NCBI GenBank assembly: GCA_030740155.1
Contig: JASLXV010000091.1
Location: 1 to 11,125 of the forward strand
Source: Dehalococcoidia bacterium
Lineage (GTDB): Bacteria > Chloroflexota > Dehalococcoidia > Lucifugimonadales > UBA3495
Length of the DNA: 11,125 bases
Direction of reading: 5' to 3'
Shown: positions 3,228-11,125 of the stretch, one piece after another
Numbering within the stretch: the first letter of the stretch is position 1
Layout: each line of letters starts with the position of its first letter
Made by a program: the position numbers and the translations under genes
The notes under the pieces: model-generated
Database searches by the model: none
What the model was told of the DNA's origin: nothing
Seen by the model: the letters and a program-made list of their open reading frames with translations, nothing else

Positions 3228-4982
3228 ATGACCACATCGATCGATCCCATCCGCATGGAGGTCGTCAGAAACGCCCTGGAGAGCATTGCCGACGGCATGG
3301 CGCTCACCGTGGTGCGGACCTCTCGTTCTTCTGTAGTACGCACCAGTCTGGACTTTTCCACCGGCGTCCTCGATTCCAAGGGAGAACTGGTGGGCCAGAG
3401 CATGTGCTCTCCCACCCACCTGGGCGGGATGATGCCCGCGCTGAAGTCCTGCTTGGACCAATTCGAGGGGCGTATCTACCCCGGCGACATACTGGTTACC
3501 AACGATCCCTACGAAGGGGGAAGCCACCTCCCCGACATATTCCTCTTCAAGCCTGTCTGGATCGGCGACCGGATCGTGGCCTATCTATGTGCCATGGCCC
3601 ACCATACCGACATCGGGGGCCGTGTCCCCGGAGGGAACGCCTGCGACAGCACGGAGATATACCAGGAAGGGCTTCGCATCCCGCCCCTCAAGCTGCAGGA
3701 GCGCGGCGAACCCAACGAGACCCTCATGCGCATCTTGGAGAAGGCGGTGCGGGTGCCCGATAAAGTCCTGGGAGACCTCAAGGGCCAGGAAGCCGCCCTG
3801 TACTACGGTGAGCGGGAGTACAACAAACTGGTGGCCCAGTACGGGATCGAAGGGCTGGAGTCCGCCGTGGAGGAGCTTCTGGACTACACGGAGGAGCTGA
3901 CCCGGAAATCCATCTCCTCCATGCCCGACGGCACCTGGACCTTCACCGATGTGGTGGACAACGATGGCTTCGATGACGTGCCCATCAAGATCGTGGCAAC
4001 CGTAACCAAAAAGGGCGACGAGATAGAGGTGGACTTCGAGGGCACCTCACCCCAGTGCAAGGGCGCGATCCAGCCGGTATTCGCCACCACCAAGGCGATG
4101 GTGTACGCGATACTTCGCTCGGTTATGGAGGGCGAAATTCCGAACACCGGCGGGTACTTCCGGCCGGTGAGTGTCTACGCCCCCGAAGGGACCTTCGTCA
4201 ATCCTCTTCCCCCGGCCCCGGTCGCCGCCCGGGCGCTGGGGTGCCGGCGCATAACCCATGCCATCCTGGGCGCCTTTGCCCAGATGCTCCCCGATCGGGT
4301 TTTCGCTTGCCCAGGCGGGTCCGAGGTTGGGGTGGGTGTCGGGGGGTACGATAAGAGCATTACGCCCTGGAAAGCCTGGGTACAGCTCGAGTTTCACAAC
4401 GAGACCGCCTGCGGCGGACGCCCGACCATGGACGGCACCGATGGCCAAGGGTCCAACATCTCCAACCTGGCGAATATTCCGGCGGAGACCATCGAGGCCG
4501 AGCAACCCATCCAAATATTGGAATACGCCCTGATTCCCGATACCGAGGGCGCCGGGAAATACCGTGGCGGGCTGGGCATGGTACGCACCTACCGGTATTT
4601 GCTGGACGACACCCTCGTGCAAGTACGCGCCGACCGGGAGAAGACGGCCCCCTACGGCCTCCATGGCGGTCTGTCCTCCACGACAACCGAGGTCACCGTC
4701 ACCAAGGGTGGCGAGACGAAAGCCATGCCCACCAAGTTCCTCGACACCCTCAATTCCGGTGACTCCCTCCGCATCAAATGGCCGGGAGCCGGCGGCTGGG
4801 GTGATCCCCTGGATCGGGACCCGGAAGCGGTGCTTTGGGACGTCGTCGAAGATAAGGTGTGCGCGGAGCGGGCCCGGGACATCTATGGCGTCGCCCTGGA
4901 CATGGAGCATCGCGCCGTCGACTGGGATGAGACGCGGCGGATGCGGGAGAAGATCATCGCGGGACGCCGGGAGGCCTCGTAG
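3228..4982 (+). CDS. Hydantoinase B / oxoprolinase family subunit (HyuB-like, metal-binding; 584 aa)
   Basis: Motifs RTSRS....LDFS, NDPYEGGSHLPD, AHHTDIGG..PG, STEIYQEG..IPP, VDFEGTSPQ, GAGKYRGG.G and GAGGWGDPLDRDP. GGAGG RBS at 3217-3221. Confidence 0.95.
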   Translation: MTTSIDPIRMEVVRNALESIADGMALTVVRTSRSSVVRTSLDFSTGVLDSKGELVGQSMCSPTHLGGMMPALKSCLDQFEGRIYPGDILVTNDPYEGGSHLPDIFLFKPVWIGDRIVAYLCAMAHHTDIGGRVPGGNACDSTEIYQEGLRIPPLKLQERGEPNETLMRILEKAVRVPDKVLGDLKGQEAALYYGEREYNKLVAQYGIEGLESAVEELLDYTEELTRKSISSMPDGTWTFTDVVDNDGFDDVPIKIVATVTKKGDEIEVDFEGTSPQCKGAIQPVFATTKAMVYAILRSVMEGEIPNTGGYFRPVSVYAPEGTFVNPLPPAPVAARALGCRRITHAILGAFAQMLPDRVFACPGGSEVGVGVGGYDKSITPWKAWVQLEFHNETACGGRPTMDGTDGQGSNISNLANIPAETIEAEQPIQILEYALIPDTEGAGKYRGGLGMVRTYRYLLDDTLVQVRADREKTAPYGLHGGLSSTTTEVTVTKGGETKAMPTKFLDTLNSGDSLRIKWPGAGGWGDPLDRDPEAVLWDVVEDKVCAERARDIYGVALDMEHRAVDWDETRRMREKIIAGRREAS

Positions 4983-5286
4983 CCTGGACTGGATAACTCT
5001 CCATCGCCGCGGAACCCGCCGCAACAAAATCCACGGACCGGAACGAGTAAGCCCACCGTTCGTGGCTGCCCGGCAAGTCGGCGCCCGCACCCGGAGCGTT
5101 CGGTGCCCCGGGACGGCCCCTCGAAGTATCGCGCAACACACAGATCGTGTTGGTTCAAATCCGGTGGTTAAATGCCGGGTAGCCCTTCGGTAGGGCCGCT
5201 AACCGAACAAATTGGTCCCCCCGGATGGGGGATGTTCACCAGCTACGTGCGCCAGTTCAAGAGCGCCTGAGGAGGTCTGGATCGTT

Positions 5287-7380
5287 ATGTCAGAGGATAT
5301 CCGGCTTGGAGTCGATGTGGGCGGCACTTTCACCGATGTAGTACTGTTGAGGGCCGACGGGACTGCCCTTCCGATGAAGGTGCTCTCGTCGCCGCCGGAC
5401 TTCGGCACCGCAATCAAGGCAGGCGTGCAGGAGATACTCAAGAGCAACAGCATTGACGCCGGCCAAATTCGGGAATACACCCACGGAGCCACCGTGGCCA
5501 CCAACGCCATCCTGACCCGGACCGGCGCCCGCACCGGCCTGATTACCACGCAGGGCTTTCGAGACGTGCTGGAAATCCGCCGTATGCGGATGCACCGGTT
5601 GTATGACATGAACTGGCAGAAGCCCACGCCGCTGGTGCCTCGCCACCTGCGCATGGAAGTGCCCGCCCGGATGGACGCCAGCGGCGCGGAGGTGATAGCC
5701 CTCGATGAAGATGCCGCCCGGCTGGCCATCCAGCGGTTGATCGAGGAAGGCGTAGATTCCATAGCGATCTGCTACATCAACTCCTACGCCAACGGCGCCC
5801 ACGAGTGGCGCACCCGAGAGTTGGTCCGCGAGTTAGCCCCGAGACTGGCGGTGTCGACCTCCAGCGAAGTCCTGCCGGAGATCAGGGAGTACGAGCGCAC
5901 CAGCACCACGGTCATCAATGCCTATGTCCAGCCGGTGGTAGACGCCTACTTCCGGTCCATGGAATCCGACGTCAAAGAGATGGGAATGGACACCCCCATC
6001 ATGGTGATGCAGAGCAACGGCGGCATGATTCCTTCCGAGACGGCCCGGCAGTTCCCCTGCCACGTCATCGAGTCCGGTCCCGCCGCCGGGGTAACCGGGG
6101 CCTACCACCTGAGCAAACGGATGGGCATCGAGAACGTCATTACCCTGGACATGGGCGGCACGACGGCCAAGGCGGCCATGATCGAGGACGGAGAGATATC
6201 CCGCTCCCCAGAATACGAAGTCGGGGGAGAACTCAGCATCGGGCACCGCCTCTTGAAGGGCAGCGGGTACCTCTTGCGGGTACCCTCCATAGACATCGCC
6301 GAAGTGGGCGCGGGCGGCGGCAGCATCGCCTGGGCCGATGCCGCGGGGGCTCTCAAGGTGGGCCCCAGCAGCGCGGGCGCGAAGCCGGGTCCCGCTTGCT
6401 ACGGCCTGGGCGGGGTGGAACCCACCATCACCGACGCCAACGTCCACATGGGCCTGACCAACCCGGAGTACCTGGCCGGCGGCGCCCTCAAGGTTCACCC
6501 GGACCTGGCCGACAAGGCGATCAACGACGGCGTGGCCTCCCGGCTGCGCCTCGACATAACCGCCGCCGCTTGGGGTATCCGCACCGTGGCCAACTCCAGC
6601 CTCATCCGTGCGTTGCGCGCCGTGTCCACCGAACGTGGCCGCGATCCCCGGCGGTTCACCCTGGTCGCTTTCGGAGGCATGGGTCCGGTCCACGCCCTGG
6701 ACCTGGCAGCCGAGCTGGGCATCACCAAGGTCGTCATTCCCCCACTTCCGGGGCTGTTCAGCGCGCTGGGCCTGCTCCTCGCGGACGTGGAGCACCACCT
6801 GATCCAGACCCAGTACAGCAACACCGCCAGTCTGGACTACGATTCAGTCCACGGCGTCATCGACAAACTGATGGATGATGCGGCCGGAATGCTGGAGCGG
6901 GAAGGGTACGACGCCGCCCACCGTTCCATTGCACTCTCCGCCGACACCCGCTACGTGGGCCAGGACTTCGCCCTCACTATACCCCTGCCGGGCCGGAAGC
7001 TGGACCCCGCCATGATGGCCCGGTTCGTCGAGGAGTTCCACCAGGAGCATGCCAAGACCTACGGGTACGATTCCCGGCATGAAGATGTGCAGATCGTCGC
7101 GCTGCGATGCGTGGCCAGGGGACTGACCGACACGCCGAGGGTGCCGGAGCAGCTCAAGATCGACCCCCTGAAAGGCTGGAAGCCGTCGCCTTCACGAAAG
7201 TGTTATTTCGGGCCGGACCGGGGCTGGATTCAGACGCAGGTCATGACCCGGCACGATTTGGGGGCCAAGCCGGTGGACGGACCTGTCATCATCGAAGAGG
7301 ACAACTCGCTGACAGTCGTGTTACCCGATTGGAAGGCTAACCTGGACGAATGGTCCAATATCGTGGTGGAACCAAAATAG
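5287..7380 (+). CDS. Hydantoinase A / oxoprolinase family subunit (HyuA-like, ATP-binding; 697 aa)
   Basis: Motifs GVDVGGTFTD, HGATVATNA, TTQGFRD, EIREYERTSTT, ESGPAAG, DMGGTTAK, VGAGGGSIA, VGPSSAGAKPGPACYG and PG.FSALG. Start at ATG 5287 after GAGGAGG (5269-5275) rather than 5212. Confidence 0.95.
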   Translation: MSEDIRLGVDVGGTFTDVVLLRADGTALPMKVLSSPPDFGTAIKAGVQEILKSNSIDAGQIREYTHGATVATNAILTRTGARTGLITTQGFRDVLEIRRMRMHRLYDMNWQKPTPLVPRHLRMEVPARMDASGAEVIALDEDAARLAIQRLIEEGVDSIAICYINSYANGAHEWRTRELVRELAPRLAVSTSSEVLPEIREYERTSTTVINAYVQPVVDAYFRSMESDVKEMGMDTPIMVMQSNGGMIPSETARQFPCHVIESGPAAGVTGAYHLSKRMGIENVITLDMGGTTAKAAMIEDGEISRSPEYEVGGELSIGHRLLKGSGYLLRVPSIDIAEVGAGGGSIAWADAAGALKVGPSSAGAKPGPACYGLGGVEPTITDANVHMGLTNPEYLAGGALKVHPDLADKAINDGVASRLRLDITAAAWGIRTVANSSLIRALRAVSTERGRDPRRFTLVAFGGMGPVHALDLAAELGITKVVIPPLPGLFSALGLLLADVEHHLIQTQYSNTASLDYDSVHGVIDKLMDDAAGMLEREGYDAAHRSIALSADTRYVGQDFALTIPLPGRKLDPAMMARFVEEFHQEHAKTYGYDSRHEDVQIVALRCVARGLTDTPRVPEQLKIDPLKGWKPSPSRKCYFGPDRGWIQTQVMTRHDLGAKPVDGPVIIEEDNSLTVVLPDWKANLDEWSNIVVEPK

Positions 7381-7415
7381 TGTAGGCCACGGCCACACCG
7401 ACGCGAGGTAGCGAA

Positions 7416-8219
7416 ATGGTACTGACCCGCCAAGATATACCCGCAGTTCCCGCCGAGGCCCGAGGGTTGTTCCGCCAAGGCAGATGGACCCAACGTACCA
7501 GCGGCCTATGCGTGGGCTATGCCAACGCAAACCTGTGCATCGTGCCCCGGGAGCTGGCCTTCGACCTCCTCCTCTACTGCCAGCGCAACCCCAAGCCCTG
7601 CCCGGTGCTGGAGGTGCTGGACCCCGGAGACCCCATGGTCAAGAGCCTGGCCAACGGCGCCGACATCCGCACCGACCTGCCCCAGTACCGGGTACTGGTC
7701 CGGGGCGAAGTGGTGGACGAGCCTTCGGACATAACCAAGTATTGGCGGGACGACCTGGTGACCTTCCTCTACGGTTGCAGCGGCACCTTTGAAGGTGCCC
7801 TGGAGGGCGCGGGGATTCAGCCTCGCTGGCGGCAGGGGGACGAGTCGGGGGCGGGAATCTACCGCACCAACATCCCCACCATCCCCGCCGGGAAATTCCG
7901 CGGGAACCTGGTGGTCTCCATGCGCCCCATTCCCAGCCATCAGGTATCCCGGGCGGTACAGGTAACCTCCCGGTTCCCCAGCCACCATGGCGCCCCCGTG
8001 CACATCGGTGACCCGGCTGCCATCGGCATTCCGGACCTGTCCCAAGCGGAGTGGGCCCCCGGGCCGACGATTCAGCCCGGGGAGGTGCCCGTGTTCTGGG
8101 CCTGTGGCGTAACCCTGCAGGTGGTTGCCCAGGAGAGCAAACCGGAGTTCATGCTCACCCATTACCCCGGCCGCATGTTCATCTCCGATATCCCGTCGGA
8201 ACAGCAGGCCGTCCTCTAG
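7416..8219 (+). CDS. DUF1445 family putative hydro-lyase (D-glutamate cyclase / YcsI-like; 267 aa)
   Basis: Motifs TSGLC.GY.NANL, CQRNPKPCP, DIRTDLP.Y, GCS.TFE, VVSMRP, HGAPVHIGDP..IGI.DL, VPVFWACGVT and TH.PG.MF. 35 nt downstream of the A subunit, with a GAGGT RBS. Confidence 0.92.
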   Translation: MVLTRQDIPAVPAEARGLFRQGRWTQRTSGLCVGYANANLCIVPRELAFDLLLYCQRNPKPCPVLEVLDPGDPMVKSLANGADIRTDLPQYRVLVRGEVVDEPSDITKYWRDDLVTFLYGCSGTFEGALEGAGIQPRWRQGDESGAGIYRTNIPTIPAGKFRGNLVVSMRPIPSHQVSRAVQVTSRFPSHHGAPVHIGDPAAIGIPDLSQAEWAPGPTIQPGEVPVFWACGVTLQVVAQESKPEFMLTHYPGRMFISDIPSEQQAVL

Positions 8220-8379: not shown

Positions 8380-8473
8380 GACGAGGGCCATCGCCATGAA
8401 ACCGGCCCCCAACGATGGCCGGCCAGCCCCGGCAAGAATTGACCTCAACCAACATGGCCCCACCCTTGGTGGG
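8380..8473 (+). repeat. 94-bp direct repeat, copy 1
   Basis: Matches 8856-8949 with two substitutions (offset 476 nt). Confidence 0.95.
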
Positions 8474-8539
8474 ACCACACTGGTTTCGCCCTCTGGCTCT
8501 CGCTTATTACCTCGGGCGATGAAAGACTGTCCCCCACCT

Positions 8540-8606
8540 CGTCTTTCCGGCGAAGGCCGGAATCCAGAGAAGCATTGGCTGGATCCCGGCTTTCGCCGGG
8601 ATGACG
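8540..8606. repeat. REP-like palindromic element, type 2 (CGTC.TT.CCGGCGAA.GCCGG.ATCCAG inverted pair)
   Basis: Arms 8540-8567 and 8579-8606 are inverted repeats matching at 24 of 28 positions. Each arm is itself a small hairpin (CCGGC-GAAG-GCCGG); similar to GTCATTCCCGCGAAAGCGGGAATCC-type repeats. Confidence 0.8.
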
Positions 8607-8670
8607 GGCCGGCGGTAAAGCCATCTACAAGCCGCTGGGCCAGTACTCAGCCTCCTTGAATCTTTCAAAA

Positions 8671-8855: not shown

Positions 8856-8949
8856 GACGAGGGCCATCACCATGAAACCGGTCCCCAACGATGGCCGGCC
8901 AGCCCCGGCAAGAATTGACCTCAACCAACATGGCCCCACCCTTGGTGGG
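8856..8949 (+). repeat. 94-bp direct repeat, copy 2
   Basis: Matches 8380-8473 with two substitutions. Confidence 0.95.
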
Positions 8950-9055
8950 GCAACATTACATCCGTCCTCTATTTCTCGTTCATTGACTCTGGCCGAGATT
9001 GATTCTCCTTGATTTTCCCCAGCTCGCACCCCATTTCCGCCCGCCACACGGGCGA

Positions 9056-9084
9056 TTGACACTGCCGCTGCGGGCAACTACACT
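9056..9084 (+). promoter_or_regulatory. Sigma70 promoter upstream of the grdB-like gene
   Basis: TTGACA (9056-9061), 17-nt spacer, TACACT (9079-9084); 90 nt upstream of ATG 9175. Confidence 0.72.
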
Positions 9085-9174
9085 CGTGCTCATTAGAGGC
9101 GGCGCGCCGGCCAACCACGGGAAGCCGGCGGCAAAAAGACCCGAAACAGATCTGCATAGGTTGGGAGGTGAGCC

Positions 9175-10527
9175 ATGGCGGGACCGGTTCGCATCATCCA
9201 TTACCTGAACCAGTTCTTCGGAGGTGTCGGAGGCGAAGAGAAGGCCAACGCGCCGGTGGAGGCACGGGAAGGACCCGTTGGGCCCGGTCGTGCTCTTCAA
9301 CTGGCTCTTGGCGACCAGGGAACGGTGGTTGCCACCGTGATCGGGGGAGACAACTACGTCGTCGAGGAACAGAGCACGGCGGTAGAGGCCCTGGAAGACG
9401 CCATCACGCGTTTCAAACCGGACGTGTTGGTCGCGGGCCCGGCCTTCGACGCCGGCCGGTACGGCCTGGCCTGCGCGCTGATGTGTCAGGCTGCCCAGGC
9501 AAAGGGAGTCCCGTCGGTGGCCGCCATGCATCCGGAGAACACCGGAGTCCTGACCCTGAGGAAAGAGTTGGTGGTGGTATCCACCGGCACAGAGCTGGCC
9601 GAGATGCAGTCCATTCTGGCCCGGGTGGTGCCGCTGGCGGTGAAACTCGGCCAGGGCCAGGAGCTGGGACCGGCCCTGGAAGAGGGTTACCTGCCCCGCG
9701 GGTTCCGGCGTCAGGTGATTCGGGAGAATACCGGCGCGGAGCGGGCCATCGACATGGTGGAAGCCCGGATGGCGGGCCGGCCTTTTGAATCGGAGGTCTT
9801 CCGCCGCGACTTCGATCTCGTGCAAGCCCCGCCCCCGGTCCCCGATCTGTCCCGGGCCACCCTGGCCCTGATCAGCTCCGGCGGGTTAGTGCCAAAGGGC
9901 AACCCCGACCGTCTGGAATCAGGGCGGACCACCGAGCTGGCTCACAAGTACTCCATCGCCGGATTGAAGGAGTTCACCGTCGAAGACTGGGAGTGCATCC
10001 ACACCGGCTTCCACGCCGGCATCGTTAACGCTCGGGACACCAACTACGTGCTCCCCTTACGGTCCATGAGGGAGCTGGAAAAAAGGGGAGACATCGGGGA
10101 GATTTACCCGCTCTTTTACTCCACGGCGGGGAACGGGATGGCGGTGAGAGCGGCGCGCAGTATAGGAGAGGGGATAGCCAGGGAACTCAAGGAAGCCAAG
10201 GTGGACGGCGTGGTGTTGGTCGCAACTTGAGGGAGCTGCAATCGTTGCGGTGCAACGATAGCGAAGGAGCTGGCGCGGCTGAACATTCCGGTTGCCCAGA
10301 TCAGCGCCGTGCCCATGATTCCTCTGTCCGTGGGCGCCCACCGCGTGGTGCAGGGAATAAGCGTCGAGCATGTCTGCGGTGAGCCGGAGCTTTCGGTGGA
10401 GCGGGACCACGATCTGATGATGCGCATCACCCAGGCCGCACTGACGGCGCTGGTAACCAAGGTGGACGCGCCGACGCTGTTCGAACCTTCAGACGAGCCC
10501 ATGAAGGAGGCCGTCCATGCATCTTGA
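9175..10527 (+). CDS. grdB: Glycine/sarcosine/betaine reductase selenoprotein B family protein (450 aa, selenocysteine at residue 352)
   Basis: Motifs IIHYLNQFFGGVGGEEKA, AGPAFDAGRYG, EEGYLPRG.R and SSGGLVPKGNPDRLES. The in-frame TGA at 10228-10230 is followed by GSCNRCGATIAKELARLNIPVAQI...VGAHRVV...HVCGEP, open to TGA 10525-10527. GGGAGGTG RBS. Substrate (glycine, sarcosine, betaine or other) cannot be determined here. Confidence 0.92.
10235..10262 (+). promoter_or_regulatory. Bacterial SECIS-like hairpin
   Basis: Perfect 8-bp stem ATCGTTGC (10241-10248) / GCAACGAT (10252-10259) with a GGT apical loop starting 18 nt after the UGA; extendable by GCT/AGC pairing around a 3-nt bulge. Confidence 0.8.
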
Positions 10528-11125
10528 AATGGGCACCTTCCCGGTTAAAAACATCGTGTTCGGATCGAGGACCAGGTGGGACGACGGCGTCCTGGAACTG
10601 GATGCCGACGAGCTGCTGGGCCCTATCCTGGCCGAGCCGAGCATCGAAACGGCCATGCTGGAGATAGGTAAGCCGGGCGAGTCGACGCGGATCATCAATT
10701 ACCACGACATTCTGGAGCCTCGAATCAAGGTTGAAGGCCCGGCCATGACTTACCCCGGATGGTGCGGCCGGCCCGCGGACACGGTCGGGTCCGGCCGCAC
10801 CCACCGGCTGGGCGGCATGACCATCATGACCTGCGTCGATGATCCGAATGTATGGGCGGCGCGGGGTTGGAGCGTGGACCAGAAAGATGACGTGCCGCGA
10901 CCAGGGCGGGGGAAACCCTGGTCGTGGCAACGTTTCGTCGACATGTCGGGTTCCGGCGCCTTGCTGCCCTACGCGTCGACCTACAATCTGTGCCTGGTCC
11001 TCCGGCTCAAAGGAGGGCTGGACTCGGGAAACAGCTCGAATATCTTGCAGTCGGCCATACTATCGCTGTCGGACAAGCTGGCGGAGACCACCCTTGGATT
11101 GACGCCACCCGAAGTGGAGGTGTTC
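10517..11125 (+). CDS. Glycine/sarcosine/betaine reductase component B proprotein subunit (GrdE-like), 3' partial; absent from the ORF track
   Basis: Manual translation is open for 203 codons to the window edge: MHLEMGTFPVKNIVFGSRTRWDDGVLEL...KPGESTRII..HDILEPRIKVEG...YPG...TVGSGRTHRL...FVDMSG.GA..PYA..NLCL...PEVEVF. AAGGAGG RBS at 10504-10510; overlaps the grdB end by 11 nt. Confidence 0.88.
   Translation, partial: MHLEMGTFPVKNIVFGSRTRWDDGVLELDADELLGPILAEPSIETAMLEIGKPGESTRIINYHDILEPRIKVEGPAMTYPGWCGRPADTVGSGRTHRLGGMTIMTCVDDPNVWAARGWSVDQKDDVPRPGRGKPWSWQRFVDMSGSGALLPYASTYNLCLVLRLKGGLDSGNSSNILQSAILSLSDKLAETTLGLTPPEVEVF

Follow-up and report, generated by a model that had tools for sequence, protein, structure and literature searches.

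The window, a stretch of 11,125 nucleotides that constitutes contig C91 of a 3.6-Mb genome in 108 contigs (a bin with 93.7% completeness and 7.65% contamination, in which some contigs are strain variants), carries on its forward strand, at 9175..10527, a grdB-like gene for a 450-aa selenocysteine (Sec) subunit of protein B (TIGR01918/PF07355, UGxCNRC clade). Judged from the sequence, this is one intact gene whose internal UGA is almost certainly decoded as Sec, and it is part of an uncharacterised variant of a known system. That GrdB-family proteins contain Sec is textbook knowledge, and the recoding here is ordinary; by itself it amounts to an annotation fix, and the GrdD-less variant matters more. 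With modest confidence, the protein is proposed as the Sec-bearing member of a protein B pair whose likely reaction is the cleavage of a pre-activated carboxymethyl compound; the pair is predicted to supply a shared GrdA-GrdC back end, devoid of GrdD, that would yield acetyl-CoA rather than acetyl phosphate.

The selenoprotein gene and its in-frame UGA

Two open reading frames, 9175-10230 (351 aa) and 10309-10527 (72 aa), are present in the same frame, as the original prediction had it, and the TGA at 10228-10230 is the sole stop that interrupts this frame on the way from 9175 to the terminal TGA at 10525-10527. Read-through gives ..VLVAT-U352-GSCNRCGA.. in a protein of 450 aa in total, in which the putative Sec352 (UGA codon at 10228..10230) opens a U-x-x-C355-x-x-C358 motif encoded by 10228-10248. 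The 72-aa 'second ORF' at 10309..10527 is a gene-calling artefact, being the C-terminal part of the selenoprotein; no Shine-Dalgarno sequence was found in the 24 nt upstream of it, and the 26 codons between the two frames look coding, with a GC3 of 0.73 against 0.79 before and 0.78 after. The gene itself is preceded by a Shine-Dalgarno sequence, GGAGGTG at 9164..9170, read directly in the sequence, and by a sigma70-like promoter candidate, TTGACA-17-TACACT at 9056..9084, about 90 nt 5' of the start codon. The putative promoter matches at 10 of 12 positions (one such site against 0.7 expected by chance), and L027 and L028, the orthologous loci, retain both its hexamers and the 17-nt spacing amid diverged flanks.

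The read-through protein matches TIGR01918 with 402.6 bits (cut-off 65.45) over model positions 1-431 of 431, the part before the TGA covering 1-345 and the part after it 347-431. In an AlphaFold model of the 450-aa protein (mean pLDDT 91, pTM 0.57), Sec352 lies between a strand (345-350) and a helix (353-367), and the residues after the UGA contribute further strands and helices; the search with this model gave no meaningful fold match (TM <=0.26), and the sequence search found no solved relative. The expectation that automated annotation would split the gene is borne out by databases that hold separate 351-aa and 72-aa pieces. About 350 aa is the length of 118 of the 120 best database homologues, and the whole active-site motif is missing from 118 of the 120 nearest entries; these entries end at a conserved ..VAT-type motif, since that is where gene callers stop. 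At the Sec column the full-length entry P0050 has C, and P0039 has S.

Predicted decoding of the UGA as selenocysteine

Alignment with homologues, which had been named as a check, places TGA at the Sec column in every one of 51 distinct full-length homologues, which come from Chloroflexota, Bacillota and, in one record, Myxococcota (two rows of one contig-cut gene having been dropped), as well as in all seven PF07355 copies of the own genome. In all 51, the 98 aa that follow are conserved and keep the frame, always after TGA and never after TAA or TAG. Since every one of the genome's copies and of the homologues has TGA, the codon is no chance event or sequencing slip. One site, L052, has TGC and then, one codon on, a stop, which is probably a misalignment. 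Moreover, two RNA-library contigs from one study, X2 (10168-10532) and X4 (10189-10341), run across the TGA without a single difference, and a contig of a second study, X1, agrees at the TGA, which it reaches only near its contig end; with patchy coverage at a depth of 2-4, these contigs argue against a sequencing error at the TGA and are no proof of transcription.

A bacterial SECIS-type hairpin, ATCGTTGC-GGT-GCAACGAT, lies at 10241..10259, with its loop 18 nt after the UGA. The consensus given in PMC13188914 asks for a loop 16-37 nt after the UGA, a loop of 3-9 nt with G, a stem of 4-16 bp and an MFE of -7.5 or lower; the hairpin fits it with 18 nt, a GGT (or C-GGT-G) loop and 8 bp, and stretches of 45-63 nt around it fold with -16.7 to -20.7 kcal/mol. 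Across alignment A1, which takes in 38 of the 44 TGA sites, six distant rows being excluded, 92.1% of cells pair and five of the eight pairs have changed on both sides (50 cells), with none of 500 shuffles as high and slid registers at 21-56%. The six distant TGA-bearing rows, PrdB/UGSC-like (L050, L055, L056, L058, L059 and L060), lack the stem in this register (P = 1). The stem is built from the rare codons AAT, CGT and GCA, and when synonymous codons were substituted with the protein fixed, a stem as long appeared in 0.11% of 20,000 recodings (P = 0.0011, for a register picked after the fold was seen). The folding energy of the whole region is unremarkable (z -0.77, -0.93, -1.72, -1.04 and +0.14), the support for a SECIS coming from the register-specific tests only, and Rfam models found nothing in the window.

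The host had also been predicted to encode the Sec machinery, and selA (548.6 bits), selB (322.8), selD (376.8) and a tRNA-Sec(UCA) were indeed found in the genome, each located outside this contig, in a bin whose contamination is 7.65%; selD itself has one in-frame TGA. With the whole TIGR01918 model covered, the TGA column conserved, the hairpin in place and the machinery present, the claim of an intact 450-aa selenoprotein is supported.

Position within the GrdB family

The original prediction had called the protein a GrdB-family enzyme, and this stands for the broad family TIGR01918 and falls for GrdB, GrdF and GrdH proper, all three cut-offs being missed: 364.6 bits against 602.2 for GrdB (TIGR01917), 416.4 against 800 for the sarcosine reductase GrdF (NF040794) and 364.9 against 775 for the betaine reductase GrdH (NF040795). 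A published GrdB motif (PMC9751293) is matched in one of six blocks, and in six of six by the control L157; the published GrdF motif is matched neither by the 450-aa protein nor by any of the 51 rows, and hence has no positive control. In a quick tree, the UGxCNRC branch (12 rows, SH-aLRT 100) is separate from the Bacillota rows that resemble GrdB and GrdH. The clostridial motif STUGTCTRC was recovered in L157, a canonical clostridial-type GrdB that passes the cut-off, reads STU-GTCTRC and is about 40% identical to the 450-aa protein.

Compared with the GrdB/GrdE glycine reductase of Peptoclostridium acidaminophilum and C. difficile, the present system has in common the family, the length, the Sec position, the UxxCxxC motif, the downstream SECIS and the adjacent E subunit. 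It differs in a partner without the Cys242-type pyruvoyl site, in a genome without detected GrdD, ackA or pta, in the order grdB-grdE away from grdA and grdC, and in a host that encodes cytochrome oxidase. GrdH/GrdI (NF040795) and GrdF/GrdG (NF040794) share the family and the Sec motif, whereas the present protein lies on a separate tree branch; GrdI likewise lacks the processing cysteines, according to a passage in PMC10838667. The fluoroacetate reductase FarE/FarB and Cloacibacillus porcorum MFA1 offer a further parallel, in that a single A/C back end is predicted to serve many Sec-containing B pairs and, as that source has it, FarE too is an E subunit without pyruvoyl cysteines. In contrast, FarB lacks the CxxC that the 450-aa protein retains, the GrdE orthologue reaches only 93.5 of 675 bits against the FarE model, and grdD is among the genes mapped in MFA1 (figure legend in PMC10838667), whereas GrdD was not found here.

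The GrdE-like partner and the paralogous pairs

The grdE-like gene at 10517..11125 on the forward strand (PF09338, E 8e-34) starts with an ATG at 10517, so that it overlaps the end of the grdB-like gene by 11 nt; its Shine-Dalgarno sequence, AAGGAGG at 10504..10510 by direct reading, lies inside the post-UGA coding region. After 203 codons the contig ends and the gene is truncated. Contig C11 (1-523) is 96.6% identical to window positions 10603-11125 over 523 nt and continues the grdE gene, and C108:1-303 is 96.4% identical to C11 further on; the three are probably two strain haplotypes of one locus in the bin. The window's own grdE ends before the pyruvoyl site. Where canonical GrdE has SGNCVSACDK, the C11 copy and the orthologues L111 and L028 read AVT(A/G)G.-.HVTW and thus miss the pyruvoyl-forming cysteines, which are present in 4 of 58 GrdE rows, none of them from the own genome. 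The pyruvoyl group of C. difficile GrdE is formed at Cys242 (passage in PMC9908766), and GrdI and FarE are described as lacking such cysteines (passage in PMC10838667).

Six full-length grdB genes are present in the genome, with 39-54% mutual identity and each adjoining a grdE-like gene, along with one further, shorter PrdB-like copy. The six likely share one grdC-grdA pair, and L012, of the same clade as the 9175-10527 protein, sits on contig C54 in a grdB-grdE...grdC-grdA cluster. The grouping of many B pairs around one A/C back end and the E subunits without Cys both have a precedent in PMC10838667, where eight grdB paralogues are given for MFA1.

Several features of the paralogues deserve mention in their own right. 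L016 (G000:C59:42825-43545) is a shorter PrdB-like selenoprotein reading T-U-PRCHQS with the same hairpin register, and short forms resembling it are found in many relatives that have neither grdA nor grdC. The paralogues L010 and L011 (G000:C69 and C17) have lost both cysteines of UxxCxxC (U-GTGTRS and U-GTSTRS); these types make up 30 of the 51 homologues and keep the hairpin via compensatory changes.

A predicted GrdA-GrdC back end without GrdD

The single grdA and the single grdC of the genome lie side by side on C54, and both products exceed their family cut-offs (GrdA 183.5 bits, with CFV-U as its CxxU motif; GrdC 655 bits). Protein C consists of GrdC plus GrdD, as stated in a passage of PMC9908766. 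The own genome gave no GrdD, its only match being PlsX-like (E 2e-5), and neither acetate kinase nor Pta was found in it. Among 41 genomes of relatives, grdA and grdC occur in the same 11, three of which are single-contig; GrdD over the cut-off was found in none of the 41 and ackA in none of the 11 Grd-positive genomes, in a search whose acetate kinase control was positive in 9 of 14. Because these relatives have both grdA and grdC and neither GrdD nor ackA, the lack of GrdD, ackA and Pta is not explained by genome incompleteness. The class-wide survey of Dehalococcoidia gave GrdC in 39 and GrdD in none of 401 genomes, while the same model found GrdD in 84 of 85 GrdC-positive genomes of a 251-genome Bacillota control sample. 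GrdD carries the thiol that forms acetyl phosphate. Clustering of gene neighbourhoods showed no conserved gene in place of grdD, and among the best 80 of 576 metagenome GrdC loci, many of them short, none had GrdD within the fetched stretch.

The GrdC proteins also differ. The C-terminal tail has a median of 3 aa in GrdD-less GrdC (n=118) against 32 aa in GrdD-paired GrdC (n=32), all 32 of which carry the tail of about 32 aa, and the GrdD-less proteins differ at fixed positions (K300 vs N, H379 vs Q). They form their own branch on one side of the tree, a split that is partly by construction, the tree having set Bacillota against sequences chosen by closeness to the query; for its metagenome rows, GrdD-less refers to the fetched locus. 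Cys264 of GrdC aligns with the catalytic Cys of FabH, and the GrdC model matches FabH structures; the same Cys is found in canonical GrdC, which needs GrdD, so it is no proof that GrdC works alone. A Cys-Cys motif at the nucleophile was considered as a signature of GrdD-less GrdC and rejected as not diagnostic, FCA occurring there in 21 loci without GrdD.

Among single loci, G457:C20:11713-13122 is from the one Bacillota genome of the sample that has GrdC without GrdD, in a short GrdC frame (497 aa), and several Bacillota have GrdC-GrdD fusion frames of 856-953 aa (L159 in G044:C52, and G522, G680, G634, G504, G479 and G637). L150 (G064:C3:1861-7934), from Dehalococcoidia, combines a pyruvoyl-type GrdE, a GrdB over the TIGR01917 cut-off and a short-tailed GrdC in a genome without GrdD; loss of GrdD therefore need not imply a new substrate, and the two losses are separable.

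Proposed mechanism and alternatives

Since no subunit was detected for the step by which the family usually gains ATP, the enzyme likely acts on a substrate other than the family's usual. In the proposed sequence of events, SelB would bind the hairpin 18 nt downstream of the UGA and deliver Sec-tRNA, and the product would pair with the translationally overlapped GrdE-like subunit, the gene order being observed and the pairing suggested by analogy. The Sec selenolate would then attack X-CH2-COO- with a good leaving group, for instance an onium or a halide. Such attack on a pre-activated substrate, to which an even chance may be given, is suggested because GrdE has no pyruvoyl site, as in GrdI for betaine and FarE for fluoroacetate. 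The carboxymethyl group would move to the genome's single GrdA, whose motif is CxxU, and GrdC, with its FabH fold and its nucleophile Cys264 kept, would cleave it and transfer the acetyl group to CoA. That GrdC alone releases acetyl-CoA is put forward as a tentative suggestion, with rather more doubt than confidence. No conserved neighbour pointing to the substrate was found; the D-glutamate-cyclase-like gene of the window is kept in L027 and L111 only, and not in L028.

Two alternatives accept the Sec, and each is improbable to a similar degree. According to one, the protein belongs to a conventional glycine, sarcosine or betaine reductase in which a housekeeping PlsX or an unrecognised protein replaces GrdD and acetyl phosphate is the product. 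The GrdA and GrdC scores and the intact UxxCxxC are as such a reductase would have them, a PlsX-like GrdD homologue is present in 33 of the 41 genomes, betaine reductase needs no pyruvoyl group (passage in PMC10838667), and in G064 a B pair of the canonical type occurs in the absence of GrdD. However, the 364-416 bits stay below cut-offs of 602, 775 and 800, the GrdB motif matches in a single block of six, neither ackA nor pta was found in the genome to use acetyl phosphate, and the tail of all 32 GrdD-paired GrdCs is missing.

According to the other, which would likewise come as something of a surprise, the paralogue works without GrdA and GrdC, like D-proline reductase, in a Sec-dependent reductive cleavage of C-N or C-S bonds with thioredoxin or another donor and without acetyl transfer. 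A pair that is unclustered with grdA and grdC and has its own promoter candidate speaks for this, and so do the PrdB-like relatives in many genomes without grdA and grdC, TIGR01918 matching in 32 of 41 genomes against 11 of 41 with grdA; yet of the 12 genomes that have full-length B genes, 11 also carry grdA and grdC and the remaining one, G022, is 67% complete, and L012 of the same clade is clustered with grdC and grdA on C54. Scarcely credible, finally, is a TGA that is a true stop, pseudogene lesion or sequencing error with a 351-aa product, as the roughly 350-aa length of 118 of 120 database homologues and the end of Pfam PF07355 at the UGA might suggest, since those short entries reflect gene callers stopping at the ..VAT-type motif, and the conservation of the 98 downstream residues behind TGA in 51 of 51 homologues, the SECIS covariation, the Sec machinery and the identical independent contigs all stand against it.

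Relation to known systems, host and significance

Sec in the family, split annotation and paralogue expansion are already known. GrdB has been recorded in SAR202 bins of the Lost City metagenome (Fig. S11 legend, bioRxiv 10.1101/2022.01.25.477282); these too are Dehalococcoidia, with two copies in one bin, a separate clade and clusters written GrdEBCA by the authors, and the main text of the preprint speaks of glycine reductase, with no occurrence of GrdD there. A passage in PMC9321204 mentions grdH homologues in open-ocean metagenomes. No description of a GrdD-less variant was found in the open literature, subscription journals being outside the scope of the search.

The nearest orthologues are Dehalococcoidia records with 92% and 77% identity, the latter a protein labelled SAR202 cluster by NCBI and already named a family selenoprotein B. 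The genome gives 34 matches to luciferase-like monooxygenase, a SAR202 trait, and a gene for cytochrome oxidase subunit I lies on the same contig as grdC-grdA; the host is likely an oxygen-respiring marine bacterium. It is conceivable, though less likely than not, that SAR202-type oxygen-respiring Chloroflexota possess an undescribed Sec-dependent carboxymethyl salvage, in which an enlarged set of B pairs, six in this genome and each specific to its substrate, removes acetate units from onium or halogenated compounds of marine origin, to be converted straight into acetyl-CoA by a distinct GrdC independent of GrdD. If so, this would be an aerobic, assimilatory use of a chemistry so far known only from anaerobic ATP-yielding fermentation. 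Should GrdC work without GrdD, the mechanism of protein C would have to be revised, and 'glycine reductase' calls in marine and subsurface genomes need not mean ATP-yielding glycine fermentation or the reductive glycine pathway; it would also hint at an overlooked path by which an abundant lineage of the deep ocean handles betaine-like or halogenated C2 compounds.

Other features of the window

Upstream of the grdB-like gene, window positions 3228-8219 hold genes for hydantoinase/oxoprolinase B and A and, after them, a D-glutamate-cyclase-like gene that passes the PRK05463 cut-off; the genome has about nine copies of the A-type oxoprolinase and three of the cyclase. A functional link of these genes to grdB was considered and is unsupported: the cyclase is found only in the own locus and in L027 and L111 among 269 loci, about 950 nt and a separate promoter candidate intervene, and paralogues are many in the genome. 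Positions 1-143 are taken up by a non-coding repeat, about 140 bp long, which blast matched 29 times in the genome; 16 of these matches lie at contig ends, and next to two internal copies no ORF large enough for a transposase was apparent. A 153-nt direct repeat lies upstream of grdB at 8380-8532 and 8856-9008, its copies 84% identical and 476 nt apart, and between them, at 8530-8640, lies a dispersed REP-like element that recurs across the genome.
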